A stretch of 64,000 nucleotides of DNA, taken from positions 678,099 to 742,098 of the forward strand of contig MEWB01000001.1 of NCBI GenBank assembly GCA_001773215.1, given 5' to 3'. Source of the stretch: a candidate division WWE3 bacterium RIFOXYC1_FULL_40_10 (GTDB lineage Bacteria; Patescibacteriota; WWE3; UBA101185; UBA10185). Within the stretch, counting starts at the first letter, position 1. The number at the start of each line of letters is the position of its first letter. Both the position numbers and the translations under genes were made by a program. This document shows positions 27,111-57,260 of this stretch, piece after piece. The notes under the pieces were generated by a model, which made no database searches, was not told the origin of the DNA, and worked only from the letters and a program-made list of their open reading frames with translations.

Positions 27111-28202
27111 ATGAAAGTATTAGTAACAGGAGCCGCAGGTTTTATAGGTAGCTATATAAGCCGAGCTTTAATTAATAGAGGTGACGATGTAATTGGTATA
27201 GATAATTTCGACGACTACTATCCCAGAAAAAGCAAGGAATTTAATCTGGATTTGGTTTACCTTATTGCAGAAGGCAGTGTTAAATATTTACCTGAAAATG
27301 AAACTATGCCGGTTTTTGAAAAAATTAACAGTTTTTTGCAAGCCGATACACGACTTCGTTCTCGTGATATTAAGGGTAAGTTTGTATTTGAAGAAGGTAA
27401 TATGATTGACGAAGGTTTTGTAAGGAAAAGCTTTGAGAAAAATAAACCTGACGCAGTTATTCATTTGGCGGCAAAGGCAGGCGTACCTTCTTCACTAAGA
27501 GACCCAACCGGCTATGTTAAAACCAATATGGTCGGCACAGCGAATCTTATTGAGGCTTGTAGAGACTTGGGCATTAAAAAATTCGTGTTTGGATCTTCTT
27601 CTACGGTTTACGGCAATCGAGAAGATAGAAAAATACATGAAGATGACGACATACTACATCCCGAATCTCCCTATGGGGCTACAAAGGTCGGGGGAGAGAT
27701 TTTTTGCTATACGGCATCAAAAGTATATGGAATAAAAACAACTGTGTGCAGAATAATTGGCCCTATATACGGACCTCTTCAAAGGCAATATGGCATGTTT
27801 ATGCAACGCGCTATTAACTTTACTTTTAATGATAGGGAAATATCGATATACGGTAAGAAGGGGCTTGAAACCTCCAAAAACAGCACTTACATTGACGATT
27901 TAGTATACGGCTTGCTGCTTTGCCTGGATTATGACAAGAACTTTGATGTCTTCAACATCGGATCAGGAGAGGCCCAAAAAATATCCGATTGGATTGGCGA
28001 GATAGAAAAGGCGATGGGAAAGAAAGTTAAATACACAGTAGTCGAAGCAGACAAGGGAGACGTGGGATCATCAGTGGATATTGCAAAGGCCCAGAAAATA
28101 TTAGGCTATAACCCTGCAATGCAGTTGTCCCAAGGGGTAAAACGCCAGGTAGAAACTTTCTTACTAATGCCCGATTGGTACAAGAACCAAAAAACCGTTT
28201 AG
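27111..28202 (+). CDS. NAD-dependent nucleotide-sugar epimerase/dehydratase (SDR family)
   Basis: VTGAAGFIGS Rossmann motif, catalytic YGATK (YxxxK); 363 aa, with a ~50-aa insertion after the first beta-alpha unit. Confidence 0.7.
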   Translation: MKVLVTGAAGFIGSYISRALINRGDDVIGIDNFDDYYPRKSKEFNLDLVYLIAEGSVKYLPENETMPVFEKINSFLQADTRLRSRDIKGKFVFEEGNMIDEGFVRKSFEKNKPDAVIHLAAKAGVPSSLRDPTGYVKTNMVGTANLIEACRDLGIKKFVFGSSSTVYGNREDRKIHEDDDILHPESPYGATKVGGEIFCYTASKVYGIKTTVCRIIGPIYGPLQRQYGMFMQRAINFTFNDREISIYGKKGLETSKNSTYIDDLVYGLLLCLDYDKNFDVFNIGSGEAQKISDWIGEIEKAMGKKVKYTVVEADKGDVGSSVDIAKAQKILGYNPAMQLSQGVKRQVETFLLMPDWYKNQKTV

Positions 28203-28203
28203 T

Positions 28204-29100
28204 TTATTGTACCGATCCCTCGTGGGAATAAAGTCCATAATCAAAAACCGACGGCATAGAGGGGTTTGATCTTACCGCAGTTATCTCCTTGGATATGCTC
28301 TGAGATTCAGAGCCAGATAAATAACCCTTGCATATGACTCTAAAACCCTGATTTGGCATCACGGTAGCAGGAGCCACAGGATAAACTCTGATAAGTGAAC
28401 CCTCGTACAACGCCCTAAGCCTCATACCATAGGGTGTGGGAGCACCTAATGTAGAAAAATTAACTGTCTTACATTGAAAACCAGACAAACTATGGTCAGT
28501 AGAAAGAAAAGAAGAGGTTGGTAACCCTATATCTCCTATTTGGTATCCTGTTCTAACCACATTAGCAGCGTTATAAACCACTACACTGATTGCAGTCGTA
28601 GGATTATTCCAGCACAAGTCTACAGAGTTTGCAGTGTAGCCTTCGAGAGAAACTTCTGTCATCTTACCTTCGGCAAGAGTGGTTTCAAAGGGATTTTGGT
28701 TTGAAAGAGTCTCAAATTTCGCTTCCGCCTGTAAAGTTAGATTTTCCGAGGCAGCCTTATAGGGCAGTACACACGCAGAGCCATCGACTGTGGCCACAAC
28801 CCCGGAACCGGCACCAAAAGCTTGTGAACACTCACTCGAGGTAGCTCCCGATTCAACAAGATTATCGACCTCAACAAGGGGCAACACTACAGCTCTCTCA
28901 ATACAACCTTCAGCGGCACCTAAAACTCTAGAATAAGTATCGGATGTTGTGGTTCGTTTAACGGAAGATAATGTTCTGTTAGATATGGATACACCTACCA
29001 CCATAGCCACCGAAACGGCAACTAAAACAAATAACAGAGCTTGTCCTTTTTTAAATTCATTTTTTTTCATATCTTTAATAACCATAAGTAATAGAGACAA
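28204..29100 (-). CDS. Secreted/anchored protein with a class-III-signal-peptide-like (pilin-like) N-terminus
   Basis: The likely start is MKKNEFKKG followed by QALLFVLVAVSVAMVVGV: a short basic leader ending in Gly, then a ~20-aa hydrophobic helix. There is no Glu at +5, so it is not a canonical type IV prepilin. The rest is beta-rich with several Cys. Overlaps the upstream giant gene by 26 nt. Confidence 0.35.
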   Translation of the reverse strand: MSLLLMVIKDMKKNEFKKGQALLFVLVAVSVAMVVGVSISNRTLSSVKRTTTSDTYSRVLGAAEGCIERAVVLPLVEVDNLVESGATSSECSQAFGAGSGVVATVDGSACVLPYKAASENLTLQAEAKFETLSNQNPFETTLAEGKMTEVSLEGYTANSVDLCWNNPTTAISVVVYNAANVVRTGYQIGDIGLPTSSFLSTDHSLSGFQCKTVNFSTLGAPTPYGMRLRALYEGSLIRVYPVAPATVMPNQGFRVICKGYLSGSESQSISKEITAVRSNPSMPSVFDYGLYSHEGSVQ

Positions 29101-32100
29101 CTGAATTTCCTAAACCGGTATTTATATGGTCGGCTCTCTCCATCTTCGTGAGTTGATAAAGCATCTTTTGGCCATAAGAAACTATCTCGGCGGGATGTAA
29201 TTTATTAATTTCAATACCTAGATCTCTGGTTAATCCCGGACTATTTCTCATGATTACAGGTCCTAACACCTTGATCGGAGTTGCATATGTCCCGATAGGT
29301 CTCCCAACGTCAAAGTTAACCATATCCAAGGTAAGAATAGCGGCCTGAATCTGCGGAACAGAACCCGTGGCTCCTGTGTCCGAAGGTGAAACAGGATTAG
29401 TGACGGTTGCTCCCGTAGTACACCACAACGAGGGGCAAGTAAAGGTACCACACTTATTACAGTTAACACCACATTGGGAATCAATATTGTGGGGCGTACA
29501 AGAAGTAGTACTTGTGACATTCAAACCGCAATTCCCTGCAAGGTCGCACTTATATCCGGTATCGTAACTTATATCTACCTTTGAATTAGTCACAATCAAT
29601 AACCTGTCGTTGTCAGTTCCCGTATCTACAAAACTCTTCCATTCAGACCCTGCTACAGCACCCTTTGTAAACGTAAGCGCCGGATCGCCACCCTGACGGG
29701 TTACATACACTATTGCCATTGCTCCCGCAGCGACTCCACCATCCGTTGTGCCATCGCTGGCTACCACATTAAATCCATGCAAACTATTTATAAGCCCATT
29801 AATAGTAGCGGTTGTAGTTTTGTATATTTTACCCATCGTTAAAACCATACCATTCGGCAAATCCTCGGCAGAAGGAGGAACAGTAAGCCCGCTTGCATTC
29901 AAATTTATATATTGGCCAAACCAATCGTCTCTGTAACTTTCACCCAAATTCTGTGCGTATCGATCAGCCGGATTAGGGTCAGTTATCTCCGCCAAATCTC
30001 CACTAATACCTCCCAAGGTAAAAGCGTAACCACCGGTATATGGCGAGTTGACATTTACTCGCTCCAGAAGTTTACCCGAAAACGTTGTACTGTTTTTTAC
30101 CGTACAACTGTTTACACTGATAGCTTGGGCGGAAACATCACTATCTACCACCGAATACCAAGGTTCTGCCTGTGAATCAACCAGGATAGACAAAAATACG
30201 GCCTTATCCGTCTCAGTATCAGTGACATTGGGAACTTCACCCACTACATATGAAAAACCATAGCTCCCCGGGGCTGAACAAGGCACCCATTGAGCCGGGT
30301 CCGGAGAAGGAGAAAAACCTCCCGTTGAAACCGTAGTTTCATCACAGGTTTTTTTGATACTAACTAGTCCGCAGGAACCGTTATTTAGAGAGCAACTCGA
30401 ATCAGCGCAAGTAACCGAGACAACCAAACCGTCGTTAGGAACTCCTAAAGGGGTATAAGTAAAACGGGCCATTCCATTGGAATCAGTTGATACAGGTCCT
30501 AAGGCTGTGCCACCAACTGTTAGGGTTACTTTAGCACCCTGCACTGTAGTAAAATCAGGTCGATTGGGCAATTCCGGTATACCCGGATTATCATTTTCAA
30601 TATACGCACCATTATTCCAGTAACTGCTTGGCCCCCCAGTACCACTACAAAGTGGATTATTGTAATCGACAGTACACTCGCATGAGATTCTAGCAGGTCC
30701 TGTAAATTGTGAGCAATAATAGTTTTTTATATCGGCCTTATTATCAAATGGGGCTTCGGTCCCCACATAGATGGATAACGTGTGCGCTTTTCCCACCAAT
30801 ATAGAAGTAGATGTTTCTGCTGTATAAGCATTCGGACATTCAGGATAAGCGTGCGAAAATCCTTCGGCTTTAAAATAGATAATTCCGTTGTCTGCGGGAG
30901 TTGTTGTGTACGCAAATTTGTTGCAATCTGTTGCGTCGGGATGGCAGTTCAGTTTGGTTCCAATATACGTCCACACAGTACTCTGGGTATTGGTTTTAGC
31001 TTTGTAATAATCTACTTTCAGAAGCTTATTTGTCGGAGAACTGGTAAAGAAGGCTGAAATATTAGCAACGGAGCCCTCAGGAATGAACCCTGCTGGGTTA
31101 ACACTTAAAGTATCACTAGATGATCCCGGAACATCAACTACTATAAAAGGAAATTCCGTTCCCCCCGTAGTGGTATCAGTTAAAGTAACAACAGCCCCCG
31201 TGCAAACTGAAGCCCCCGAGATAGATACAACATAACGACCGGGTGCTAATACCCCGAGTTGAGAAGGATCAGGTATGAAAACAGTACTACCTCCGGTTTG
31301 AGGTATTGCGTTATAAGTTAGATTGGTAATTACTCCATCAAGATTTGTATATCTGACGTTGAATTTAATATCCGTAAGGGCCTGGTATCCGGGTATTGTT
31401 GCCTGCATTGGGCTTGGAATTCTTGGGGCTAGGCAGGATGCCGGACCGACATACTGCATTGTTGTTGCTGCTGCCTCAAATCTAAATACCCATGCACCCG
31501 ATGAAGAACCTTCGGTGTTGGATGCATTCACGCTCCAAACGAAATCCCCCGAAGAACAGCGGTATTGCAGGGGAACAGTATAAGTAGAAGTATAAACGTT
31601 AGATCCAAGACTTAGCGGGTATGTTGAAGAATCAGTCGTGGGCTGCCCGGGAGCTCTGGTGTACAAAACGTGAGAAGTTCCGGTAGTATCCTCACAATTA
31701 TTTACAACATTCCATTTTAAATTAACAGATGTAGTTCCAAAAGGAAAAGTTGTACTGTTAGCAGGCTCTTGAAGAGTTACAACAGGCGCGACACAGTTTT
31801 GGTTACATAAGTTGGTGTAATAATTACAGGCGGTTGCGCTTGTATTACAGCATTCGCCCGATGTCGAACATGTTCCGCCGTCTCCAACACAGATTATAAA
31901 ATTCCACTGGGCCGAAGCGACAGGATACTCGGTGCCAATTGCCCTCTTTCCTAAAGCAACTACTTGCCAAGTGTGAGTTCCCTCCGCCATTATGGAAGTA
32001 TTTAGAACAAATGAATTCGCTGTTCTAGGCAGATCTGTGGAAACTTGTACCCCATCAACAAAAACTCTTTGAAGACTTTGATTGCAATCTGCCCAGTTTG

Positions 32101-32989
32101 ACGGTGGTGTCCATGTTAGAGTAACGCTTGGTGTACCCTGAGAAACTTTTGTTCCATTTGCCGGTGATACAAGAACAGGTGCCGGAGACGGGGCCTCACA
32201 AACTGCCTGAGGAGAGCAGCTGCCATAACAACTATCGGTATTACAACTACACACAAATCCGGGACAGCAAGGATTTACACTGTTACAAAACGGTAAAGGC
32301 TGGCAACCACATACATCAGCGGGACTACATACATGGGTCGTCGCGGGACAACACCCTGACACACAGGTTGCCCCTGTGGTACAAGCACAACCGTCACCGC
32401 TACATGGGGGATTGCCGCAAGTACCATCCGATTTACAGTAGTTACTACAACACTCGGAAGCGGCACTACAACTTGAACCATTGGCTTTACACGTCGGCGG
32501 ATCAACACAAACTCCACCAGTGCAAACCAATGGTGAGCAACAGTTCCCGATACCAACCCCACAGGCCTGTCCCTCTAGCTTACATTGCCCACCCCCACCT
32601 CCATCAGGAACACACTTAAAGTCTCCCCCACATTTTCCTGAACAGCACTCATTACCTTTCAAACAGTCAAATCCATTGGGCGTACAATCACCACCACCCC
32701 CACCGCAGGTAGGAAGCGGAGGTTCACAATCACAACAAGCAGTATAACAATAGTAATTACCCATCCCTGGAAAATTCGCTGAACAATAAGAAGGATCGTA
32801 GTCACACTTGCAGGTATCTGCCACCTCACCACAGTACTGAGCATCACAATACAAATCATCTTTCGGAACATCGTAACATCTGTTTCCTAGGGAGCAGGAA
32901 CCTGGATGAGCCACAGGAGCTAGAATAAAAAGAAGAGCGAACGCTATAATATACTTTCTGATCTGGCTGGGCATTATAATTTCATCCAA
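29075..32989 (-). CDS. Giant secreted Cys-rich surface protein: signal peptide, five tandem knottin-like (C-C-CC-C-C) modules, FN3/Ig-like beta-rich repeats
   Basis: 1304 aa. Signal peptide MDEII...APVAHPG. Residues ~60-290 contain five consecutive modules with cystine-knot spacing (for example C-TPNGFD-C-LKGNE-CC-SGK-C-GGDFK-C). Then come FN3-like segments (PVLVSPANGTKVSQGTPSVTLTWTPP; PVVTLQEPANSTTFPFGTTSVNLKW) and further paired Cys. The DNA at 32150-32900 is locally GC-rich from Cys/Gly codons. Confidence 0.6.
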   Translation of the reverse strand: MDEIIMPSQIRKYIIAFALLFILAPVAHPGSCSLGNRCYDVPKDDLYCDAQYCGEVADTCKCDYDPSYCSANFPGMGNYYCYTACCDCEPPLPTCGGGGGDCTPNGFDCLKGNECCSGKCGGDFKCVPDGGGGGQCKLEGQACGVGIGNCCSPLVCTGGVCVDPPTCKANGSSCSAASECCSNYCKSDGTCGNPPCSGDGCACTTGATCVSGCCPATTHVCSPADVCGCQPLPFCNSVNPCCPGFVCSCNTDSCYGSCSPQAVCEAPSPAPVLVSPANGTKVSQGTPSVTLTWTPPSNWADCNQSLQRVFVDGVQVSTDLPRTANSFVLNTSIMAEGTHTWQVVALGKRAIGTEYPVASAQWNFIICVGDGGTCSTSGECCNTSATACNYYTNLCNQNCVAPVVTLQEPANSTTFPFGTTSVNLKWNVVNNCEDTTGTSHVLYTRAPGQPTTDSSTYPLSLGSNVYTSTYTVPLQYRCSSGDFVWSVNASNTEGSSSGAWVFRFEAAATTMQYVGPASCLAPRIPSPMQATIPGYQALTDIKFNVRYTNLDGVITNLTYNAIPQTGGSTVFIPDPSQLGVLAPGRYVVSISGASVCTGAVVTLTDTTTGGTEFPFIVVDVPGSSSDTLSVNPAGFIPEGSVANISAFFTSSPTNKLLKVDYYKAKTNTQSTVWTYIGTKLNCHPDATDCNKFAYTTTPADNGIIYFKAEGFSHAYPECPNAYTAETSTSILVGKAHTLSIYVGTEAPFDNKADIKNYYCSQFTGPARISCECTVDYNNPLCSGTGGPSSYWNNGAYIENDNPGIPELPNRPDFTTVQGAKVTLTVGGTALGPVSTDSNGMARFTYTPLGVPNDGLVVSVTCADSSCSLNNGSCGLVSIKKTCDETTVSTGGFSPSPDPAQWVPCSAPGSYGFSYVVGEVPNVTDTETDKAVFLSILVDSQAEPWYSVVDSDVSAQAISVNSCTVKNSTTFSGKLLERVNVNSPYTGGYAFTLGGISGDLAEITDPNPADRYAQNLGESYRDDWFGQYINLNASGLTVPPSAEDLPNGMVLTMGKIYKTTTATINGLINSLHGFNVVASDGTTDGGVAAGAMAIVYVTRQGGDPALTFTKGAVAGSEWKSFVDTGTDNDRLLIVTNSKVDISYDTGYKCDLAGNCGLNVTSTTSCTPHNIDSQCGVNCNKCGTFTCPSLWCTTGATVTNPVSPSDTGATGSVPQIQAAILTLDMVNFDVGRPIGTYATPIKVLGPVIMRNSPGLTRDLGIEINKLHPAEIVSYGQKMLYQLTKMERADHINTGLGNSVVSITYGY

Positions 32990-33567
32990 TCACAATTATC
33001 CATATATACAGAAGCCGAGTAAAGAACATAATCTCCGGACTTCTTTTGCTGAAGATCAGCACGTAATGGCCATTGAGGAGAATATTCTTTCATAATCTGG
33101 ACTTTCTTCTCCATCGGTATTTGCAACAACTGCTCGATCTTCTTCATTTTTCCACCTACCGACCAATTACCATATACAACACCTAAGTTGTAGACACTAA
33201 AACCCCCTATTATTGTATCTTTTCTCCTGCAATCGAGAATCAGCTGGTCGGTAAAATCGGCAGTAATAGTCTCTCCATTCCTCTCTATCGTTACTTGATT
33301 AGGATTAGTTTGAGTGCTGATTAAGTTTGCCGGAAGTTGATTTTGCAGGCTATTAATATAATTATCTACCACCACAGCCTTCTCCTCGTACGTCATCTCA
33401 AGAAAGTTCTTTGATTTTTTGACTTTTAGGAAGAGATAGAAAGAAACAAAAGCCCCAATTGCAACTAGCAAAACAACAGAAACCAACACTTTTTTATTTC
33501 TGGAATTGATCTTTATTTTAGGCAGAGGCATGTGCCTCAATTGTACCCATAATTCAAAAGGTAACAC
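32974..33567 (-). CDS. Membrane-anchored hypothetical protein
   Basis: An N-terminal TM anchor (VLVSVVLLVAIGAFVSFYLF) followed by a ~150-aa extracytoplasmic domain. Coupled to the giant gene by a 16-nt overlap. Confidence 0.35.
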   Translation of the reverse strand: MLPFELWVQLRHMPLPKIKINSRNKKVLVSVVLLVAIGAFVSFYLFLKVKKSKNFLEMTYEEKAVVVDNYINSLQNQLPANLISTQTNPNQVTIERNGETITADFTDQLILDCRRKDTIIGGFSVYNLGVVYGNWSVGGKMKKIEQLLQIPMEKKVQIMKEYSPQWPLRADLQQKKSGDYVLYSASVYMDNCDWMKL

Positions 33568-33620
33568 AAGAGGGGCCCGCCTCTGGCGGGCCCCAATAGT
33601 TATCTAACTACCCAAAAACC

Positions 33621-34394
33621 TTAATTCAGCGAGGGGTTAGCACTCAAAGCGTATCTTGCGTCAGTATATTTCCAAAACGCATCGGCACCACCAAGCTTTC
33701 CTGCACATTCCGCAGCCTCAGCTGACTTTTGAGCTGTGGCATGGAAATTTAAAGGATACTGTCTAAATACCCATGAAACATCACTATTTTCTTGGGTAAA
33801 GCTTGCCGCTGTGGGATGAAACCTTTGACAAAAGGGACATTCATAATCTGAGTACTCAATTAATGTAAACCTGGCTTTTTTATCACCTTTTACATAGTCT
33901 GTATCGGAAATAGCCTTTACCCCGGTTAACTCCTCTGCAGCATTGCCTTGCGCGTCAATTTTAGGAGGATAAACACCATTCTTTATGTCAGCCAACGCAG
34001 TCGTAAAGGTTGCAAGCGGATAGGCACCGGAAATTAAAAATGCCCTACCGGTAGTATTATCGTAAATTATGTTACCGGGTGTTCCGCTAACACCTGCCGC
34101 AGAACCTTCAGCCATCTCTTTTTTTACAGCTTCTGTCATTTCCCCGGAATTTAAGCAGGCTTGGAAAGCCTCTTTATTTAATCCAATACTTACAGCCAAA
34201 TCGGATAAAGATGTGGTAGCTTCGGTTGGTACAGCTGCTTGAGTAGGAACAGCTTCCGCAACCGTTTCAGGTACACTTTCTGCATCCTTACCCTTCCACA
34301 AACTCCCCGCATAAAACGAAACACCTGCCAAAACAGCAACAATAGCCAGTTGCACTATCGGAGCAAAGGGAAACACGTCTCTTTTGTCATTCAT
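33621..34394 (-). CDS. Membrane-anchored DsbA-like thiol:disulfide oxidoreductase with an apparently circularly permuted thioredoxin fold
   Basis: TM anchor, Pro/Ala/Thr linker, then FQACLNSGE...GVSGTPGNIIYDNTTG (matches the C-terminal half of BdbD/DsbA including the cis-Pro GTP loop). This precedes KARFTLIEYSDYECPFCQRFHP...FWKYTDARY (matches the N-terminal CxxC strand and the first half of the helical insert). The protein ends there. Confidence 0.55.
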   Translation of the reverse strand: MNDKRDVFPFAPIVQLAIVAVLAGVSFYAGSLWKGKDAESVPETVAEAVPTQAAVPTEATTSLSDLAVSIGLNKEAFQACLNSGEMTEAVKKEMAEGSAAGVSGTPGNIIYDNTTGRAFLISGAYPLATFTTALADIKNGVYPPKIDAQGNAAEELTGVKAISDTDYVKGDKKARFTLIEYSDYECPFCQRFHPTAASFTQENSDVSWVFRQYPLNFHATAQKSAEAAECAGKLGGADAFWKYTDARYALSANPSLN

Positions 34395-48550: not shown

Positions 48551-49663
48551 TTGAATATGAAAATAGCTTGCCTGCAGGAAAACTTAGCAAAAGCTTTAGG
48601 TATAGTATCTAAAGCAGTACCAACAAAAGGCGCTTTGCCAATCTTGTCGAATGTTTTAATTACGGCGGAAAAGGGAAAAATTAAATTCGCGGCCACAAAT
48701 CTTGAAACTACAATTATTACTTATTCACAGGGCTCTATCGAAGCTGAGGGTGCAATAACAGTTCCCGCCAAGTTGATCAAGGATTTTATAGCTAACTTAC
48801 CCCAAAATACGATTTCTTTGGAGCTATTGGGAGATAATTTGCATGTTGTGTCGGAAAAAACTAAATCCAAATTTAACGGCATATCGGCAAAAGACTACCC
48901 GGAATTGCCTTCTATATCCAACAAAACCAAATTCATCGAAATTGACCCCAAGGAATTTGCAAACTCAGTAGGAATTGTCGCTTTCGCATCCTCGGTCGAT
49001 GAAGGTCAGCCCCTTTACACAGGAGTATTAATAAAGGTATCAGGGAATGGAATAACATTTGTATCAACAGACGGATTTAGATTATCCGAACGGAGTATTA
49101 AGGTTGAAAACGAGTTCGAAGACGTATCCGCAATTATTTCAGCGAAAACTCTTCTTGAAGTGTCGAGAATATTCGCAAATTTCCCCACACCACTAAAAAT
49201 AGGACTCAGCGACAACGAAAATATGGCAATATTCACTTCTGGAGAGACTTTAGTGGCTACCCGGCTAATAGAGGGGGAATATCCCGATTATAAAAGAATT
49301 ATCCCGGAAAGTGGCGAATTAAACGCCTACTTTGAGGCCGCGCACTTTATGGATGCAGTAAAGCTCACCGATATCTTCGCCAAAAATACAGGAAAACCGA
49401 TAAAACTTATTTTTGACCCCGAAGGAAAGATCAAAATTGCATCATTATCCGCTGATACTGGAGAACATGAGAGCTATATTGAAGCGCGTGTTGAAGGTAA
49501 CCTAACGGAAGTTGCTTTCAATTCGAGATATTTGTTGGAATTTCTAACAAACGTAAAATCAGAAAAAATACACTTACATTCAAACGGCACAACATCACCC
49601 TGCGTTTTAAAACCCGAAGGAATAGATAATTTCCTTCATATTGTAATGCCGGTACAAATTTAG
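48551..49663 (+). CDS. dnaN: DNA polymerase III beta sliding clamp
   Basis: 370 aa with three-domain clamp organisation. N-terminal MKIACLQENLAKALGIVSKAV...PILSNVLI and a C-terminal conserved region. Confidence 0.85.
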   Translation: MNMKIACLQENLAKALGIVSKAVPTKGALPILSNVLITAEKGKIKFAATNLETTIITYSQGSIEAEGAITVPAKLIKDFIANLPQNTISLELLGDNLHVVSEKTKSKFNGISAKDYPELPSISNKTKFIEIDPKEFANSVGIVAFASSVDEGQPLYTGVLIKVSGNGITFVSTDGFRLSERSIKVENEFEDVSAIISAKTLLEVSRIFANFPTPLKIGLSDNENMAIFTSGETLVATRLIEGEYPDYKRIIPESGELNAYFEAAHFMDAVKLTDIFAKNTGKPIKLIFDPEGKIKIASLSADTGEHESYIEARVEGNLTEVAFNSRYLLEFLTNVKSEKIHLHSNGTTSPCVLKPEGIDNFLHIVMPVQI

Positions 49664-51939
49664 ACTAGGTCGTCGGATCCCAAAACATTAGGCAGAGTTT
49701 GCGTACTAGGCCCGGATAAATTACTTGCAGTAGGCTTTGGTGGTACTAAAGGTGGCGGAGTTATTTTCGGCGGAGTGATTTGCGGAGGTTTGGGTGCTGT
49801 AGTAGTTTCCAAAACAGATTTAAGAATAGCTTCCGAAGACGGCATTGCATGTTTTTCCGGATTAGGCTCTGGGCTTACTGCTATGTCTTCCGGCACCACA
49901 CCAAGATTCTTAGTTATTGCACCCGGAGCTGTCCCGCTCCCTCCCAGCACAACAGCGGGTTCTTGTTCTTCGACAACATCAGATACCCTTAAGGGAACAA
50001 AAGGAGCTTTGGGCGCAACCGTAGGTTTTGGAGGCAACGCTTTTGCGGCTAAACCTTCTTCTCTCATTCTTAAAATCTCCTCGGGATTTGTTGTGAGCAA
50101 CCTATTTTCAGCTTCGGAGGCTTTAACTAAAATCGAGACATGGTTCGCTCCGGCGAAAAACAACCCCTCCCCAACTCCTGCCGCTAATAGTAGCCTCTTT
50201 TCACCCTCGGATAGGTAAAAGGTATTTGCTACTTTCTCGATAGCAGCCGGGTGCTGTTTTAGCAGTATCTGGATAGATGAGTTTGTAACAATTGCTTTTC
50301 CGTATTCGGATGTTAAAAAGTCGTCTACATCTTGGGAAATTGTTGTTAGGCCCAAGTAATATTTACGCGCCCTTTTTGCAATCCCATAAATAAACCGTGC
50401 ACTATCTTCGTTTTGCATCAAATACCAAGCTTCTTCTACTATAAGAAGTCTTTTTCTTAAATCCTTTCTAATACGTGTCCAAATAAAATCCAAAATAATA
50501 TAGAAAGCTATTGGCCTCAATGCCTCTTCCAAGTTTTTGGTTGAAAAAACAGTCATCTTACTGGTTAGGTTTATATTTGATTGGGAATCAAAGATTCCCG
50601 TCATGGACCCCTTTATGAACTTCTCTAATCTCTCGGCCATTCCTCTTGCCTCCGGTTCTGCCGCTCCCATTAAAACTTTGTAGAGATCTTCCATTACTGG
50701 CGGTTCCCGTGTTGCCTGCGTTTCCGGATCCGTAGTAATCCCTTTTATTCTATACGCCTCTATTAAAGCCCTATCTAAAATGGCTTCTTCTGTTGGTGTA
50801 AGAGTACCCATCATTAATTTAAGTAGTGTTACAAGAGAAATCAGTTTTTGTCCCAACTCATTTTCACCTTCTACAACGATTCCGGAAAGGTCAAAAGGAT
50901 TAATTTTTGATGGTGAGTTGGCAGAGAAATCGATGTAATTACCACCAACGGCATTACATAATGGGCGATACTCTTCTTCGGGATCTATTACCATTACTTC
51001 GCACCCAAAAACCATTTGGCGCAATGCTTCCAACTTAATAAAATACGACTTACCCGACCCGGATTTGGCGAAAACCACCGAGTTGGCGTTCTCCAATGAA
51101 AACCTATCAAAGATAACTAGCGAACCGTTATGTCTGTTGATTCCATACATAATTCCTTCTTCCATTGTTAGGTCAGAGGATGTGAACGGGAAAGTGGTAG
51201 CTAAACTAGTAGTATCCATGTTTCTGGTTATTAATAGTTTATCTATGCCGGCAGGAATCGAAGACTGGAAGGCTTCTTCCATTTGGAGTGAGGCTTTTTT
51301 GGAAATTAATAACAAAGAACCTAAAGTTGATTCAAGCTTTGATGTTATGTTTTCCAACTCTTCTAAAGTTTCCGCTGACATTGTTATATAAAATGAAAAT
51401 TGGAAATATTTTTCTACCCCTTTTACCAATTGCTCCTGAAGAGCGTTTGCGTCTTCCAACGCAGCAGAAACCACGGGATCAGTGACTCTCCCCTTCTCTT
51501 GATTAGACATCATTGTGGCTTCCAACTCGGTAATTTTTCTTCGTAGGTCATCTAAAATGACCTTTGATTTTACAGGGTAGTAAAACATTGAAAGATCGAG
51601 AGAGTGGTCAAAATTTATTATAGGGGATAACCAATTAGCCCCCACAAATCTGGGATAACCTGCAACAAACAATGTCCTGTAAAAAAGTGATCCCACTCGA
51701 ATAGTATTAAAGTCCACTTCCAAGGCTCCGGGAGCAATAATATCGCGTACATTAATCATACCTTCTGCTAAAACCTGGGAAGGCGATCTTCCCCCAATGG
51801 TATTGTTAGGAGTAGCCTTATGCAGTTTAACTTGGGAATCTGCCTTTTCCATACCATCATAGGCAGGCTCAGTCGACAGATTCGATCTTGATGTGGTACC
51901 TCCCTTTTTGTTAAACATAGTGAAAATATTCAATGCCAT
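49660..51939 (-). CDS. VirB4/TrbE/TraC-family type IV secretion ATPase with a Pro-rich C-terminal tail
   Basis: Middle-domain pattern FYRTLFVAGYPRFV...WLSPIIN, Walker A FAKSGSGKSY, Walker B-like LLIVEEAWYL (DEAW-type). The C-terminal ~140 aa is a Pro/Thr-rich low-complexity tail (PPKPTVAPKAP...PPKITPPPLVPPKP). Confidence 0.7.
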   Translation of the reverse strand: MALNIFTMFNKKGGTTSRSNLSTEPAYDGMEKADSQVKLHKATPNNTIGGRSPSQVLAEGMINVRDIIAPGALEVDFNTIRVGSLFYRTLFVAGYPRFVGANWLSPIINFDHSLDLSMFYYPVKSKVILDDLRRKITELEATMMSNQEKGRVTDPVVSAALEDANALQEQLVKGVEKYFQFSFYITMSAETLEELENITSKLESTLGSLLLISKKASLQMEEAFQSSIPAGIDKLLITRNMDTTSLATTFPFTSSDLTMEEGIMYGINRHNGSLVIFDRFSLENANSVVFAKSGSGKSYFIKLEALRQMVFGCEVMVIDPEEEYRPLCNAVGGNYIDFSANSPSKINPFDLSGIVVEGENELGQKLISLVTLLKLMMGTLTPTEEAILDRALIEAYRIKGITTDPETQATREPPVMEDLYKVLMGAAEPEARGMAERLEKFIKGSMTGIFDSQSNINLTSKMTVFSTKNLEEALRPIAFYIILDFIWTRIRKDLRKRLLIVEEAWYLMQNEDSARFIYGIAKRARKYYLGLTTISQDVDDFLTSEYGKAIVTNSSIQILLKQHPAAIEKVANTFYLSEGEKRLLLAAGVGEGLFFAGANHVSILVKASEAENRLLTTNPEEILRMREEGLAAKALPPKPTVAPKAPFVPLRVSDVVEEQEPAVVLGGSGTAPGAITKNLGVVPEDIAVSPEPNPEKHAMPSSEAILKSVLETTTAPKPPQITPPKITPPPLVPPKPTASNLSGPSTQTLPNVLGSDDLV

Positions 51940-51940
51940 A

Positions 51941-52642
51941 CTATTCCTCTATTATTGCCGGATTCACAATCGCGGTTTGGTAATCATCTACATTAGTCCT
52001 AATCCTTTGACCATGAACGTTGCTGGGATTATAGATATCAAAATATAGCTCCACTAGCTCCTGGGTTGTCATTTGGCGCGCTTTAACCCCAATTCTATTA
52101 AATTCCTTTATCATATGCTCAACTTTGGGATATAGCTCTACAGAACCATTCTTTAGTACGGCATCAGCATCAAACTCAACTCTTTTTGCATGCGATCCTG
52201 TTAGCTTAAAAAACCAATCGAAAGGTCCCGAACCGGGTTGTGCACTTTCAGGCCCGGCGGTCGGGATAACAATAAAAAACCTTTTGTCTAACACATCATT
52301 TTGCTGAACAACCTCCTGAACAAACTTCCTGTACGACTCAGCCTGATGACGTAATAAAGGATCGGTAATTTTATTCTCAATTCTTTGAACTTTATCGATG
52401 TATTTAGTTATATCCAGCCTTTTGGATCTTACAACTATCTGAATAGGGAATGTTATTGAATTTAAGAGCATCGAAAAGGCTGCAATAATGGCGTCTTGTT
52501 CCATCTCCGAAAGTAAGTCGAAGTTTACAGCGTTAGTTTGAAGCACTGCACAGACTACAGAGTTTTTAAGCACCACCAAATTATCTTTAATATCATAGAT
52601 ATCTAAATGATCTTGAGTTGTTGCTGTTATATTATCTGCCAT
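51941..52642 (-). CDS. Separately encoded VirB4 N-terminal-domain-like protein
   Basis: 233 aa. LDIYDIKDNLVVLKNSVVCAVLQTNAVNFDLLSEMEQDAIIAAFSMLLNSI resembles the extreme N-terminal domain of VirB4/TrbE. Its stop lies 1 nt from the ATPase start (translational coupling). Confidence 0.4.
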   Translation of the reverse strand: MADNITATTQDHLDIYDIKDNLVVLKNSVVCAVLQTNAVNFDLLSEMEQDAIIAAFSMLLNSITFPIQIVVRSKRLDITKYIDKVQRIENKITDPLLRHQAESYRKFVQEVVQQNDVLDKRFFIVIPTAGPESAQPGSGPFDWFFKLTGSHAKRVEFDADAVLKNGSVELYPKVEHMIKEFNRIGVKARQMTTQELVELYFDIYNPSNVHGQRIRTNVDDYQTAIVNPAIIEE

Positions 52643-52649
52643 ATTTACA

Positions 52650-54122
52650 TCACCTTCCTGTAATTTGTATAGGAGGAATTACATCTCCTTTAACCTCTAC
52701 TGAAATTATATCAAAGGTTAGACCAGTATCATTAATTGGACTCACCTCGATAGTATACACACCTTCCGTCAAGGGTGTCGTTAGGATAAATTGACCCAAC
52801 TTGTTCGATTTGAAGGCCCTAACAGCCTCGCCGTTACTGTTTTTGATAATTAACAATACATTAGGTATCCCATCGCCAACAACTCCGGATACAATATTTG
52901 GCTTGGTGGTTAGAGGTGGTATTTTAGCCAAATGCACATACCCTCTAGGTTCGGCAACTACAGCAGCATTAACTTTTTCTTCAAGCTGTTTTTGCAAATC
53001 AGCAATTTGCTTACTCAACGCCTCATAATCTTGTGCTGACTTACTTTTTTCAAGCTCCAACTTTTTAAGAAGATCCTCTTGTGTTGCTGTATCAAGAGCT
53101 TTTTGTTTGGCAGTCTCAATCTCCGATTTCAAACTCTCTATTTGGTCATCTATATCTTGATTTTGTTCTTTAAGTTTATCCGCCAAGTCTTCAGCTTCCT
53201 TATTTAGCCTTTCGGGAGCTACCTGAGTCTGCGGAGTTGCAGGCCTGGCTATTTTTACTCTCTCTGTCTGCTGAATTTGGCCTAACAACTGCTGTAATTT
53301 AGCTGCTTTATCGGCAACATCTTCATCAGCCAATCGCATAGTTTGAGCATCTTGGGACAAAACCTTTTCTCCCCTGATAGGCAAAAACAACTCCCCCTGA
53401 GAAGGCAACAAGCTGGTAAATCTTCTGCCGGAATGCATGTCGGGAGTAATTGGCACGTGAGTATCGAATCCTTCAGGCTCTTGAGCTTGCGGAGGAGGAG
53501 CGACAGCCGGCTGTACATGTTCGGAAATTACAGGTGCCGGAGGAAGCTCATCTTCCGCGAAAATATCATCAACACCGACTGCAACAGGTGCAGGTGGAGG
53601 GGGTAAATCAAGCGCAGGTAATGAAGCGTAAATATTTGCAACTTTGGAAATATATTCTTCCTCCGGAATATCCAGGGGGTCTCTGGGGCCTTTTTGTATG
53701 GAGTGCGTAAGATACTCCTCAAGTTTCCTCCGGCTGGAAGTAGGCGCAAGAGTTATCATCTCTTGTCTAACCATATCTACACTTGCCATTGCGAAAGGCT
53801 TAAGTACAAAAACTTCCTTCTTCCAAATCCTCTGGGTAGGTGTGTAAACTGCTTTTACAAAATTAACTATCCACTGATCAAGGCCTCTTTCTTCGACAGG
53901 TATAAAAGCTAAGCCAATACCAAGCCCTGCTGATAAAATAAAAAGTGGAATTTTAAAAATGCCTGTAGGTAGAATCAACATCAGGTACGCCATCCCGCCG
54001 AATATCAGTACGTAGGCAAATTGTCTCATGGTTAAGTCCCCAATTAACTTGAATTCCACGTCCATGATGTTTTGGGGGACTGCATGCTGTGTATTTGTTT
54101 GAATGTTATCTCTTATGGGCAT
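52650..54122 (-). CDS. Membrane protein with N-terminal TM hairpin (VirB3-like?), Pro-rich linker, long coiled coil and C-terminal beta-sandwich domain
   Basis: 490 aa. Two N-terminal TM helices (MRQFAYVLIFGGMAYLMLILP...FILSAGLGIGLAFIP), a PPPAPV repeat linker, a ~120-aa Q/E/K-rich coiled coil, and a C-terminal ~100-aa beta-rich domain (VYTIEVSP...). Confidence 0.35.
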   Translation of the reverse strand: MPIRDNIQTNTQHAVPQNIMDVEFKLIGDLTMRQFAYVLIFGGMAYLMLILPTGIFKIPLFILSAGLGIGLAFIPVEERGLDQWIVNFVKAVYTPTQRIWKKEVFVLKPFAMASVDMVRQEMITLAPTSSRRKLEEYLTHSIQKGPRDPLDIPEEEYISKVANIYASLPALDLPPPPAPVAVGVDDIFAEDELPPAPVISEHVQPAVAPPPQAQEPEGFDTHVPITPDMHSGRRFTSLLPSQGELFLPIRGEKVLSQDAQTMRLADEDVADKAAKLQQLLGQIQQTERVKIARPATPQTQVAPERLNKEAEDLADKLKEQNQDIDDQIESLKSEIETAKQKALDTATQEDLLKKLELEKSKSAQDYEALSKQIADLQKQLEEKVNAAVVAEPRGYVHLAKIPPLTTKPNIVSGVVGDGIPNVLLIIKNSNGEAVRAFKSNKLGQFILTTPLTEGVYTIEVSPINDTGLTFDIISVEVKGDVIPPIQITGR

Positions 54123-54143: not shown

Positions 54144-57100
54144 TTATTGGAGTTTAACAATATATCTAACATCCTTATCTAAAACCCCGGTATCCTCTAC
54201 CAAATTATTCTTCTGCTCCAAATTACTGCTAAATTGATTAAGCGTCATTCCAAACGGGGCATTAAACTTAAAGTTAAACACATCGTCGTGTGTACCCGAC
54301 TGCTTTTGCCACAACATAGTATAATCCTGAAAGTCTTTAGTTATAGATAATCCTTCAGGCAAATCGTAATTTAGCAAAAGAGTTAAACTGCTTGTTGGCT
54401 CAAGCTTAAATGTGGTTTCAAACGACGAATACCTTCCTACGCTTGATACCCTTATTCTATCAAAAATATCCAGTGTAGTGTTGTCTTTATAAATAAATTT
54501 AGCACCAGTAAGTTTTGACCCTGCCTGAGTTAATACTCTAACATAATTTGTGTAGGGGCCGCCGGGCCACGCATCCCCTTCTCCGGTGTGTTTATAGTTT
54601 AGTGCTAATGTTCCTCTTAATATCCCGTCTCTGGTTAAAGAATCCACTTCGTATTCCATCGTGTTCTGTACATAGTAGTTTGCTTTTGTTCCGCCCAAAT
54701 TAGCATTTACCACTTGTAAATAATCTCCTTCGGAATCAGCTAAACTTCCATCCCAATTTCTACTCTTAAGAAATGCGTTTAATGAACTGTTTTTAAAATA
54801 AATTTGAAAATGTCTCTCATCCAAAGATTTTTCGATCGACCCCAGAAGAGGTGAGATTTTATCTTTTGGAGTGGCAAAGATTTTCTCGAGCAGTTTACTG
54901 CCTAAAACAGTTAAAAACCCTCTTTTGGCATCCGAGCCGGCTTCAAAATTAAAATCACTGTGGTACTGAGTTCTCTCATATAAATTCTCGGATGTAATTT
55001 GTTCATCGTATGCAGCTAAAAATAAAGGCCCTGTTACATTTATTAATTCCTTTGCAAAAGATAAATCAACAGCTAAATAGCCATCGATATCTTCTCCGGT
55101 CACTCTGTAATACAAGTCATCAAAAGCCACCACCGAACTTGGAAAATCCGGACTCCAGTTTGAGTTTCTCAGATGCAATCCATTTTCTCCTAAAAGCTCC
55201 GCAATAGGGGACGGAGATGGCACCGAAATTCCCCTAAGATCTATTTGGCCATCCGGATTATAAATGTCGTCAATTGTTAAATCCTTGAGTTTTCCGTTTT
55301 CAAAGGTTAGCAGGCCATAGGATCCTATAAACCCTCCTGTGGGGCGTATCTCGTTTGAATTTTGGAACCAAACCATATATGTCTTTTTCGAGGAGGCACC
55401 TAATATTTGCGGGAGATCTGCTACCACCGCAGAGGCAAGCACCAAGCCGGAATCGATCTGTTCAAGATATACTCCGTATACTCTTGCCGGTTCCTGAAGT
55501 TTTTCCGGCAAGTCGGGAATTGAGATGTTTTTAAAATCCGCACTGGCTAACCCTATTGTGTTTCGAGCATTTAACAATGAAAACTTTGCGCTATCAAAAT
55601 ATGAGGAATCCATGGTTTCATCCGTATCGGGACGGATTATAGCCCAAAGAGCTTCCATGGGTTTTACTACATCCGCCAATTCCTCACCGGATTTCGAGAA
55701 GTTTATCAACGAACTAAGCAATCTATAGGTAGCGTTATATTGCTCCTTTTTACCGGAAATTTTAAAAAGCCACTTGACCTTAACCAAATAAGACCTTGAA
55801 GATGTGAAATCCTCAGTGGCAGTCTTGAGATTGTTTTTTATCTGCTCCGAATCAAAATGGTTGGAAGGATCCCTAACAGCCATTAACGCTAATTTCCCAT
55901 GTTCTGCCTTAGAGAAAACTTGAAAAACGGGAAATACGACAAAGGTAATAACGGCAGCAGCTAAAATTGCTCCGATAGTTAAAGACCTGCTCACTTTTGG
56001 GGACACTGAATGAGCTGTGATTCGGGGAAGAGCCCCTGTTGTTTTAATACCTTTGCGAACTATGTCTCTAAGTTTTTTAATTAACTCCCCCACCGGATTT
56101 CTTTTGTTTATGTATGGGTAAGGGTTCGGAGAAAAACTGGTTGGCACATTGGCGGCCGGAGCCTTGAATCCGGGTTCGTAGGCATATATGGGCATGGGGG
56201 TAGTCGCGATAGGCGGTGCGGTTACAGCCCTGCTGGCTATGTGATCTTGAATATATCTTGCAGGTTTAAATGAAAGTGAGTTTACTTTATAACCAAACCA
56301 GGACAGAGTCTTCACTATTCCCTCTTTTAGTGCAACCTTAGGCTCCCAAGCCAGGTCTCCCAGGTTAAATGTATCAACATCGCGAGGACCCTGTTTAACC
56401 GGGGAAAGATAGGGTGAATATTTAACATCCAACTCGGCATCCGCCATGCTCTTGACTAGATAGGCCACTTCTAGAACGGAAACAGGTTCTCCTCCTACCA
56501 AGGAATAAATATTCCCTTTAGTCACAGGATTAAATAGGGCCTTCAAAATTCCTGCTATGGCGTCTTCGATGTATAAGTAAAATTCTTTATCAGTTCCGTC
56601 ACCCCTAACACTAATGTCTCTTCGCTCAATCAAATCTTTCAAAAAGCTGCCAATCGAACCGCTGGCATCCAAATTCATGTTTGGTCCATATATTTCTGGG
56701 AGACGAGCCACCCTTATATCGAGTTTGTATCTGTGGTAGTACTGCCAAACCAACGCCTCAGAAAATCTTTTGGCCTCGGTGAGGCTAAATTTGTTGTCCT
56801 CAAATGAGCTAAATCCAAAATACTTGTCGATGCTTAGCTGAGACATTCTCCCTTGGTACACATCGATGGTGGAAGCAAGTAAAAATTTAGCCTCGGATTT
56901 CTTGGCGAGGTCCAAAAGATTTTTCACACCCAATGAATTTGTTAATAAGGAATCCAAGTTTAGATACTCTTTGCTGTACAGATATTCTTCTAAACTGGCC
57001 AAGTGGATTATATAGTCAACACTATCTATATCACTTGGAATACCTTCGTTAATATCCACATCGTACAATGCAAAATTTGGATTGTTCATTAAATGCTGAA

Positions 57101-57260
57101 TATTTACTTGCTTTCCGGTCTGAAAATTATCTAAGGCAATAACCCTTGCTCCTTTGTCGAGCAAAGCTTGTGCTAGGTGGGAACCTATAAAACCGGCACC
57201 TCCTGAAATAAGTGCTGTCGGTATGAGTGCTGTTTTTCTTATTACTTGATCTTTGGGCAT
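54144..57260 (-). CDS. Fusion protein: NAD-dependent sugar epimerase/dehydratase domain, a TM helix, and a large extracytoplasmic domain of unknown function
   Basis: 1038 aa. N-terminal ~330 aa SDR epimerase (ISGGAGFIGSHL, YxxxK). Single TM helix (LTIGAILAAAVITFVVFPVF). The remaining ~600 aa are hydrophilic with the motif WFQNSNEIRPTGGFIGSYG. First gene of the VirB4 operon. Confidence 0.55.
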   Translation of the reverse strand: MPKDQVIRKTALIPTALISGGAGFIGSHLAQALLDKGARVIALDNFQTGKQVNIQHLMNNPNFALYDVDINEGIPSDIDSVDYIIHLASLEEYLYSKEYLNLDSLLTNSLGVKNLLDLAKKSEAKFLLASTIDVYQGRMSQLSIDKYFGFSSFEDNKFSLTEAKRFSEALVWQYYHRYKLDIRVARLPEIYGPNMNLDASGSIGSFLKDLIERRDISVRGDGTDKEFYLYIEDAIAGILKALFNPVTKGNIYSLVGGEPVSVLEVAYLVKSMADAELDVKYSPYLSPVKQGPRDVDTFNLGDLAWEPKVALKEGIVKTLSWFGYKVNSLSFKPARYIQDHIASRAVTAPPIATTPMPIYAYEPGFKAPAANVPTSFSPNPYPYINKRNPVGELIKKLRDIVRKGIKTTGALPRITAHSVSPKVSRSLTIGAILAAAVITFVVFPVFQVFSKAEHGKLALMAVRDPSNHFDSEQIKNNLKTATEDFTSSRSYLVKVKWLFKISGKKEQYNATYRLLSSLINFSKSGEELADVVKPMEALWAIIRPDTDETMDSSYFDSAKFSLLNARNTIGLASADFKNISIPDLPEKLQEPARVYGVYLEQIDSGLVLASAVVADLPQILGASSKKTYMVWFQNSNEIRPTGGFIGSYGLLTFENGKLKDLTIDDIYNPDGQIDLRGISVPSPSPIAELLGENGLHLRNSNWSPDFPSSVVAFDDLYYRVTGEDIDGYLAVDLSFAKELINVTGPLFLAAYDEQITSENLYERTQYHSDFNFEAGSDAKRGFLTVLGSKLLEKIFATPKDKISPLLGSIEKSLDERHFQIYFKNSSLNAFLKSRNWDGSLADSEGDYLQVVNANLGGTKANYYVQNTMEYEVDSLTRDGILRGTLALNYKHTGEGDAWPGGPYTNYVRVLTQAGSKLTGAKFIYKDNTTLDIFDRIRVSSVGRYSSFETTFKLEPTSSLTLLLNYDLPEGLSITKDFQDYTMLWQKQSGTHDDVFNFKFNAPFGMTLNQFSSNLEQKNNLVEDTGVLDKDVRYIVKLQ

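Follow-up and report, generated by a model that had tools for sequence, protein, structure and literature searches.

A giant cysteine-rich secreted protein paired with a minor-pilin-like protein in a WWE3 bacterium: a candidate type IV pilus tip adhesin

In a 64,000-nucleotide stretch of candidate division WWE3 bacterium RIFOXYC1_FULL_40_10 (contig MEWB01000001.1, positions 678,099 to 742,098; the whole stretch is called the window below), four co-directional open reading frames (ORFs) lie on the minus strand at 28204-29100, 29075-32989, 32974-33567 and 33621-34394. Three of them would make up a core cassette consisting of a small protein with a membrane anchor, a 1299-aa protein that is rich in disulfides and exported by Sec (hereafter the giant) and a minor pilin of the GspK/PilX type; the fourth encodes a DsbA-like protein. 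An earlier sequence-only reading had described all four as one tightly packed operon and suggested a module for display of an adhesin or effector. Here we describe the locus, its relatives in the candidate phyla radiation (CPR, or Patescibacteria), and the case for the giant as a pilus-tip adhesin.

Genes and domains of the cassette

The cassette comprises three genes:

32974..33531, minus strand: small bitopic membrane protein, ~185 aa from ATG 33531 (longest ORF, 197 aa, from GTG 33567)
29075..32974, minus strand: the giant, secreted and Cys-rich, 1299 aa from ATG 32974 (longest ORF, 1304 aa, from TTG 32989)
28204..29070, minus strand: GspK/PilX-type minor-pilin-like protein, 288 aa from ATG 29070 (longest ORF, 298 aa)

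All four ORFs are real, but the 16-nt and 26-nt overlaps once taken as a sign of tight packing are a product of the TTG starts of the longest ORFs. In independent assemblies, the start of the giant is called at ATG 32974 (product P0001, 1299 aa), which overlaps the stop of the 197-aa ORF by 1 nt (TAATG). For the pilin-like gene, ATG 29070 (MKKNEFKKGQALLF...) is the most likely start, 4 nt past the stop of the giant. Residues of the giant are numbered throughout from TTG 32989.

The giant ORF itself is genuine. An identical 1299-aa protein is encoded on 19 contigs, which come from the ENA, JGI and Logan assemblies and include one of ~0.9 Mb; the same product on so many independently assembled contigs is therefore not a chimera. 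Since the module region also lacks any DNA-level tandem repeat, both an assembly chimera and a collapsed repeat were rejected. The G+C content of positions 28001-34000, which cover the cassette and the DsbA gene, is ~0.44, compared with 0.40 for the window. Because G+C at third codon positions is not raised (0.33-0.39), this excess probably reflects coding rich in Gly, Ala, Cys, Thr and Pro rather than foreign origin.

The giant contains 80 Cys, 47 of which fall in its first 264 residues, and can be divided as follows:

32903..32974, minus strand: Sec-type signal peptide MPSQIRKYIIAFALLFILAPVAHP, read from sequence; no class III leader and no lipobox
32705..32896, minus strand: irregular N-terminal region with 12 Cys, residues 32-95, from Cys positions; no family match
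32198..32686, minus strand: five tandem cystine modules, M1-M5, from Cys pattern, shuffles, AlphaFold2 (AF2) and Foldseek
Residue positions of the modules: M1, C102-C126; M2, C136-C161; M3, C167-C191; M4, 196-227; M5, 229-264
31892..32197, minus strand: FN3-like beta domain 1, residues ~265-366, from phmmer matches to the fn3-repeat proteins P0005 and P0007
31793..31891, minus strand: sixth cystine module (M6), residues 367-399, C-x6-C-x5-CC-x6-C-x6-C with one extra Cys
31475..31792, minus strand: putative FN3-like beta domain 2, residues ~400-505, from weak internal similarity to domain 1; approximate boundaries
30221..31474, minus strand: middle beta-rich region with paired Cys, including the next stretch
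30383-30607, minus strand: Big_1/invasin-like Ig-type stretch, residues ~795-869, from a match to P0008 whose matched repeat is Pfam Big_1
29078..30220, minus strand: conserved C-terminal domain ('Cdom'), residues ~924-1304, from alignments A4 and A6
29420-29548, minus strand: 8-Cys insertion within Cdom, residues 1148-1190, specific to this giant among its homologues
29078..29119, minus strand: extreme C-terminal conserved tail TGLGNSVVSITYGY, from 19 tails aligned by eye; proposed docking strand

The sole strongly hydrophobic 19-mer of the giant lies within residues 9-33. Neither an LPXTG motif nor a C-terminal hydrophobic anchor is present, in agreement with the sequence-only reading that there is no obvious cell-wall sorting signal, and both lipoprotein and sortase anchoring were rejected from the sequence. 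Searches with the giant as a whole returned little: no family in a Pfam and NCBIfam scan, only itself in a word-indexed homology search, no confirmed relative in a scan of genome contigs, and no match in PDB sequence searches, whether with the giant or with its Cys-rich region.

The FN3/Ig-like repeats proposed earlier find indirect support in matches to other repeat proteins. For residues ~261-352, the match is to the fn3 repeats of P0005, with an E-value of 1.8e-16 as the sum over 10 repeats, and the fn3 repeats matched by the giant belong to actinobacterial S-layer-type proteins. Within the giant, the first 33 residues of FN3-like domain 2 resemble domain 1 (E 2e-4), and the Ig-type stretch further on matches a Big_1 repeat; Pfam fn3 gave no direct match to the giant itself. 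The motif PxLxSPxNG...W...C of domain 1 also recurs in homologues of the giant.

The cystine modules of the head

The inhibitor cystine knot (ICK), or knottin, fold is known mainly from eukaryotic toxins and defence peptides. The sequence-only reading had recognized five modules with C-C-CC-C-C spacing in the giant and named this framework for them. Five strict matches to the pattern C x3-8 C x3-9 CC x2-7 C x3-8 C are indeed found, compared with a mean of 0.2 and a maximum of 3 in 20000 residue shuffles of residues 28-400. M1-M3 are cleanly spaced (C-x6-C-x5/6-CC-x3/4-C-x4/5-C), but M4 and M5 are irregular, with 8 and 9 Cys respectively, M4 fitting the framework with extra Cys, and the module at residues 367-399 had been missed. 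The six-Cys knottin framework, with short loops in a domain of about 25-40 residues, is clean in M1, M2, M3 and M6. The linkers between modules are rich in Gly or Pro (VPDGGGGGQ, VDPPT, GNPP). Metal-binding CxxC clusters are disfavoured, as C-x2-C occurs only at C38-C41 and C56-C59 in the first 264 residues and the modules carry CC doublets instead.

When the modules were scanned singly, five of six gave sub-threshold matches, solely to cystine-knot toxin families (Toxin_18/19/21/12/29, Conotoxin and UPF0506; E 0.003-0.6), and module 4 matched no family. The best of these matches, to Toxin_19 (E 0.0032), scored 18.0 bits against a Pfam cut-off of 23.2 and so falls short of curated knottin membership; the concatenated modules likewise stayed below the Pfam cut-off. 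In an exhaustive HMMER search of 1.84 billion representatives, the sole relative of the modules was P0011 (L008 854-1330, Logan SRR23702481), a 158-aa secreted protein with four tandem C-x6-C-x5-CC-x3-C-x5-C modules (CxxxGxxCxWDHxCC...) that is 40% identical to M1-M3 and whose whole sequence exceeds the Pfam Toxin_29 cut-off. The 1.5-kb contig encoding P0011 is compact and prokaryote-like. P0011 may be a free-standing bacterial knottin array.

We modeled M1-M3 with AF2, using P0011 as the sole extra alignment row. The mean predicted local distance difference test score (pLDDT) was 71.6, with M3 at 86-89. A Foldseek search of the PDB with this model gave 33 matches, ~27 of them ICK peptides, with target-normalised template modelling (TM) scores of 0.68-0.84 and root-mean-square deviations (rmsd) of 0.7-1.3 Å over 26-31 residues for the ICK matches. 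Nemertide alpha-1 superposed with a TM of 0.82 and an rmsd of 0.7 Å over 28 residues, and scytotoxins, conotoxins, atracotoxin and the double-knot toxin DkTx were also among the matches. The best E-value was a non-significant 0.21, as is to be expected with domains of ~30 residues. In this model, the fold of M1-M3 is knottin-like, as the earlier reading had anticipated. If the modules are true cystine knots, with their disulfides joined I-IV, II-V and III-VI, the knottin scaffold would have an example in bacteria, and a multivalent array of it would exist in nature.

ICK peptides usually act as toxins or in defence, tandem knottin toxins such as DkTx exist, and P0011 is a small free-standing secreted protein with four modules of the same framework. 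The giant could then be a toxin or antimicrobial polyprotein whose modules are freed by proteolysis to act on a host cell, with the remainder as carrier. We consider this very improbable: the linkers have no dibasic or other obvious processing sites, the array is fused in frame to ~1000 residues of structural domains and a conserved putative docking domain, the sixth module is embedded between two FN3-like domains, and homologues of the giant have unrelated Cys-rich heads in its place. Among the homologues, two have a single match to the strict ICK-like pattern and 11 have none. By sequence comparison, the knottin-like array is thus a variable head specific to this organism, and relatives bear other Cys-rich heads.

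Relatives, pilus context and the DsbA-like neighbor

Relatives of the cassette were collected from 12 CPR genome loci, found in a genome scan with an alignment of the pilin-like protein and analysed by ORF mapping, phmmer and a hidden Markov model (HMM) of the Cdom alignment A4, and from two metagenome contigs (L006 and L007). The genome loci come from Saccharibacteria, WWE3 and other Patescibacteria. A scan of metagenome contigs with a two-sequence pilin alignment confirmed no relative.

Across these loci, the constant element of the giant is its C-terminal domain. Cdom is common to the giant, P0009, P0010 and P0012, and every one of the 15 cassette-type pilin-like genes in the 12 genome loci, L006 and L007 is directly preceded by a Cdom-bearing protein (HMM E-values of 1e-13 to 1e-44 in the genome loci). 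Thirteen of these partners are full-length or nearly so: 12 have 652-1419 aa and 12-68 Cys, and the one on L007 (P0012), which the pilin-like gene overlaps, has 367 aa and 4 Cys. On L006, at the truncated start of the contig, another reading frame encodes GFTGLGNSVVDIEYGY and a stop, matching the C-terminus of the giant (TGLGNSVVSITYGY and a stop). The N-terminal heads differ between homologues, being Cys-rich but otherwise patterned, and the C-terminal domain is conserved. The last ~12 residues are among the best conserved of the giant; in 19 tails compared by eye they follow the pattern [ST]G[LV]-x3-[DVN]-[VIL]-x-[WFI]-x-[YLI]-x1-3-end, with alternating hydrophobic residues, and the protein always ends 1-4 residues past an aromatic or hydrophobic position. 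As judged from these alignments, Cdom is the family-defining part of the giant.

The partner of the giant had been read as a 298-aa protein with a pilin-type N-terminus, and comparison with relatives supports this. Its leader, MKKNEFKKG, is followed by QALLFVLVAVSVAMVVGVS, with no Glu at +5. G9 and Q10, directly before the hydrophobic helix, are invariant in 16 of 16 pilin-like homologues, none of which has Glu5; they also keep an R..TD...R..AAEG.IE motif, Cys, and a C-terminal LP.QG...FDY motif. One close homologue, P0003 (on L006), is 47% identical. A short leader ending in Gly and a hydrophobic helix lacking Glu5 are features that the protein shares with the GspK/PilX-type minor pilins, which normally have no Glu5. 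Of its weak family matches, those common to three or four of the 16 homologues are GspK, PilX_N and tapirin, the last a sub-threshold match in 3 of 16 (best E 0.026, alignment A5) to a protein that is cellulose-binding according to NCBIfam. In two pilin-like partners (L014 3450-4610 and L020 9863-11170), a Cys-rich insertion with 14-15 Cys follows the conserved AAEG helix, and disulfide-rich elaboration is therefore not confined to the giant.

The type IV pilus context, which the sequence-only reading had missed, comes from the relatives. In L009, L010, L012, L013, L017 and L018, the giant-pilin pair is directly followed by 6-7 pilins with a GFTLIELL-type N-terminus and then a PilM-like ORF; in L010, L012 and L018, a second pilin-like paralogue stands between the last pilin and the PilM-like ORF. 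Pfam assignments were checked for one of these clusters, L010, which at gathering thresholds contains T2SSF (PilC), N_methyl pilins, Peptidase A24 (PilD), PilM_2, PilN and PilO. These six loci thus share the arrangement expected of a PilY1-type adhesin, namely a Sec-exported non-pilin encoded with the minor pilins of a type IV pilus locus. As far as sequence and gene order can tell, the cassette family is widespread in CPR/Patescibacteria and genomically tied to type IV pili. In L012 (3-5927) and L018 (1847-10840), two or three giant genes stand in a row before the pilins, and most of them have a pilin-like gene of their own; this suggests alternative, interchangeable pilus-tip heads.

For 10 of the 13 full-length giants, a small ORF ends just upstream of the giant, and most of these small proteins have an N-terminal hydrophobic anchor. 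The window's 197-aa membrane protein showed no similarity to its counterparts ahead of the other giants, the YCLDxxCxxxGxxC family among them, and these small proteins are not homologous to one another, so that only their position and approximate size are kept. A conserved family of small membrane-anchored proteins of ~176-242 aa lies near or directly upstream of WWE3 and Saccharibacteria giants (L010 4352-5434; L016 2871-3422; L018 173-748, 4271-4801 and 6846-7574), and the ending YCLDxxCxxxGxxC is found in five of its six members. Judged by these comparisons, the conserved unit is the giant plus the pilin-like gene, in most loci preceded by some small membrane-anchored protein.

The fourth gene of the window's set is separated from the other three by a hairpin:

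33621..34394, minus strand: membrane-anchored DsbA-like protein, Pfam DSBA and Thioredoxin_4; a neighbour, probably outside the cassette
33572..33594, minus strand: perfect 10-bp G+C hairpin GGGGCCCGCC-AGA-GGCGGGCCCC, then UCUUGUGUUACCUUUU; just past the DsbA stop, with a U-rich tail

The protein itself is what had been proposed, a membrane-anchored, DsbA-type thioredoxin with CPFC, above the Pfam cut-offs (Thioredoxin_4, E 2.1e-17; DSBA, E 2.8e-15) and matched by PDB 4n30 (E 9e-23), but its halves are swapped, which had escaped the first reading. Positions 101-190 of the DSBA profile align with residues 38-134, and positions 3-84 of the Thioredoxin_4 profile with residues 164-244. An N-terminal membrane anchor is followed by a Pro/Thr/Ala linker and then by the two halves of DsbA, first the C-terminal half (the helical part and the GTP cis-Pro loop at 104-106; residues ~61-134) and second the N-terminal half with CPFC at 186-189 (residues ~159-253). 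Because the same swapped order is seen against the Pfam profiles and against PDB 4n30 and 3gyk, the protein is, by these alignments, a circular permutant. The two halves break contiguously within the helical insert, as would be expected from tandem duplication followed by truncation. Apart from the cassette, such a permutation of DsbA is of minor interest for the evolution of the thioredoxin fold.

Could this protein be the dedicated oxidase of a self-contained, four-gene operon for display of the giant? Its gene adjoins the cassette in the same direction, an 80-Cys exported protein requires an oxidase, and there is a weak match to the NCBIfam PedC/BrcD bacteriocin-maturation disulfide isomerases (E 6e-4, far below the cut-off). 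On the other side, none of the 12 related genomic loci contains a DsbA homologue, so the co-conservation expected of four linked genes fails for this one. The hairpin consists wholly of G+C, against 40% in the genome, and to judge from its sequence probably acts as an intrinsic terminator; it parts the DsbA-like ORF from the other three genes, and a unit of three plus one genes is for this reason more likely than a four-gene operon. Together, the hairpin and the lack of co-conservation argue against a dedicated operon. The cassette also sits inside a long co-directional run of housekeeping genes. Finally, paired Cys are also found in the pilins and further exported proteins of the related loci, and a general oxidase would therefore be needed anyway. 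A dedicated four-gene system is thus quite improbable, and the DsbA-like protein may oxidise the giant within a general role. Of the earlier proposal, the DsbA operon falls, whereas the knottin-like modules and the pilin-like partner stand, and a role in adhesion or host interaction is in our view, too, the most plausible one.

Elsewhere in the window, positions 49660-54122 (minus strand) encode a type IV secretion or conjugation-like set comprising a 759-aa P-loop ATPase of the TraG/VirB4 type, a PrgI-family protein and a weak TraC-like protein; one paper, by its title, reports the type IV secretion system of Patescibacteria to be homologous to monoderm conjugation machinery. Positions 54144-57260 (minus strand) encode a 1038-aa fusion of unusual architecture, with an N-terminal NAD-dependent epimerase/dehydratase and a DUF4012 domain.

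Proposed role and comparison with known systems

On balance, we think it somewhat likelier than otherwise that the giant is a PilY1/PilC/MshQ-like type IV pilus tip adhesin mounted on a GspK/PilX-type minor pilin. Its family has the matching anatomy, that is, a variable head, a conserved C-terminal domain, a conserved tail and a translationally coupled pilin without Glu5, and we therefore propose that the giant is a CPR analogue, not a homologue, of PilY1/PilC/MshQ. The tip location, the docking and the adhesin function of the giant are inferred, as is the real connectivity of its disulfides. The giant would leave the cell through Sec and undergo oxidative folding outside, with the neighbouring DsbA-like protein as a possible general oxidase. 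Cdom, and above all its C-terminal tail of invariant length, would then dock on the co-translated minor pilin by strand donation, in analogy to PilC, PilY1 and MshQ. The giant-pilin complex would prime and cap the type IV pilus, and the variable N-terminal head would thereby come to lie at the distal tip, binding a surface or host cell. In this organism, the head would consist of five tandem knottin-like modules and a sixth, spaced by FN3/Ig-like domains.

Several observations weigh against this view. The giant has no detectable similarity to PilY1 or PilC and no Pfam match, and an AF2 model of Cdom from a four-row alignment was unusable (pLDDT 32.5). The pilin-like protein remains below curated pilin thresholds: T2SS_GspK matches 4 of 16 members (E 0.011, 15 bits against a cut-off of 130) and PilX_N matches 3 of 16 (best E 0.041). 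A PDB profile search with the pilin-like protein gave no match. Beyond this partner, no type IV pilin or pilus machinery gene is present in the 64-kb window, and the cassette likewise lies away from pilus genes in L014 and L015. For the head, AF2 could be recalling knottins from Cys spacing alone.

The same isolation from pilus genes here, in L014 and in L015, together with a non-canonical pilin-like N-terminus (Gln at +1, no Glu5, no Pfam N_methyl match), would also suit simple cell-surface display. There, the pilin-like protein would be neither processed nor polymerised but would serve as a signal-anchored stalk for the giant, and the small upstream protein as a chaperone or assembly factor. 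CPR bacteria do have other Sec-dependent filaments with membrane-anchored chaperones, the latter proposed for Pam pili (10.64898/2026.03.03.709456). We nevertheless find display of this kind unlikely, as the pair heads a pilin-PilMNO cluster in six relatives and the invariant Gly-Gln at the putative cleavage site fits processing. The absence of Glu5 is moreover normal for GspK/PilX-type minor pilins.

Beyond the tip-adhesin analogy, we can tentatively imagine more. In this bolder and rather doubtful version, the giants would form a so far undescribed, PilY1-unrelated family of CPR tip adhesins that dock with their conserved C-terminal domain, by strand addition, on a dedicated GspK-like pilin and carry exchangeable disulfide-rich heads, here a genuine ICK array used for host attachment. 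Were it true, the ICK domains would be a distal receptor-binding or protease-proof element for holding a host. All cultivated CPR/Patescibacteria grow attached to host microbes, and how they recognize and hold their hosts is largely unexplained. Type IV pili are the best-supported candidates for CPR host attachment (PMC11623550). The two-gene module, which occurs in Saccharibacteria, WWE3 and further CPR lineages, could be the tip adhesin that is missing so far, its specificity head being exchangeable.

A search of full-text literature on Patescibacteria/CPR combined with cysteine-rich and pilin terms returned no description of the giant-pilin pair. Papers on saccharibacterial type IV pili describe minor pilins with accessory domains, but not this pair (PMC11623550). 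What appears to be new here is a putative type IV pilus tip-adhesin module in which the docking domain is an unrelated one and the head, in this organism, is knottin-like.

Among known systems, the final beta-strand of PilK/GspK-family minor pilins has been shown to come in trans from the adhesins PilC and PilY1, which contribute their last ~10 residues; this licenses the pilus to assemble and keeps the adhesin at its tip, and AlphaFold modelling predicts the same strand donation for MshQ (Ellison et al., PMC13533445). Like these proteins, the giant is a Sec-exported non-pilin of roughly their size (~1000-1200 aa), its gene stands beside that of a minor pilin without Glu5, in or beside a minor-pilin cluster in relatives, and a variable N-terminal part is joined to a conserved C-terminal part with a strongly conserved extreme C-terminus. 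Unlike them, it does not resemble the PilY1/PilC beta-propeller in sequence and has no Pfam or NCBIfam match, the gene order of the cassette is adhesin and then minor pilin, the head is extremely disulfide-rich, and the pair in this window lies apart from any pilus cluster within 64 kb. The organism that encodes the giant also differs, being a CPR bacterium, presumably without an outer membrane.

The modules of the head compare with the knottins, such as DkTx, and with the 'SCREP' proteins, under which tandem disulfide-rich repeats in bacteria have been catalogued generically, mostly as unrecognised domains. They have the same C-x6-C-x5/6-CC-x3/4-C-x4/5-C spacing in tandem with short linkers, and their predicted small hairpin fold superposes on nemertide alpha-1, spider toxins and conotoxins. 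They differ from these in being bacterial, in lying within a 1299-aa surface protein rather than forming a free peptide, and in scoring below curated family thresholds.

Large Cys-rich extracellular CPR proteins have been noted before, without a mechanism, in Peribacteria (Anantharaman et al. 2016, PMC4736985). Compared by description only, those proteins are like the giant in being large, signal-peptide-bearing, ~6-7% Cys and unannotated, with a proposed role in attachment; to judge from the contig name prefix 'ANAN16', both probably go back to one Rifle groundwater sampling campaign. They are unlike it in forming a 14-gene cluster with weak similarity to Myxococcus Cys-rich repeats or FG-GAP, and the Peribacteria paper reports no pilin partner, docking domain or ICK-type modules (PMC4736985). 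Finally, modular minor pilins, such as PilX1 and PilX2 of TM7x and PilB and PilC of Streptococcus sanguinis, also bear adhesive modules on a pilus, and further points in common are non-canonical signal peptides on candidate tip proteins and a CPR type IV pilus context (PMC11623550). In those pilins the adhesive domain is fused to the pilin, whereas here the putative adhesin and the pilin-like protein are encoded by separate genes.

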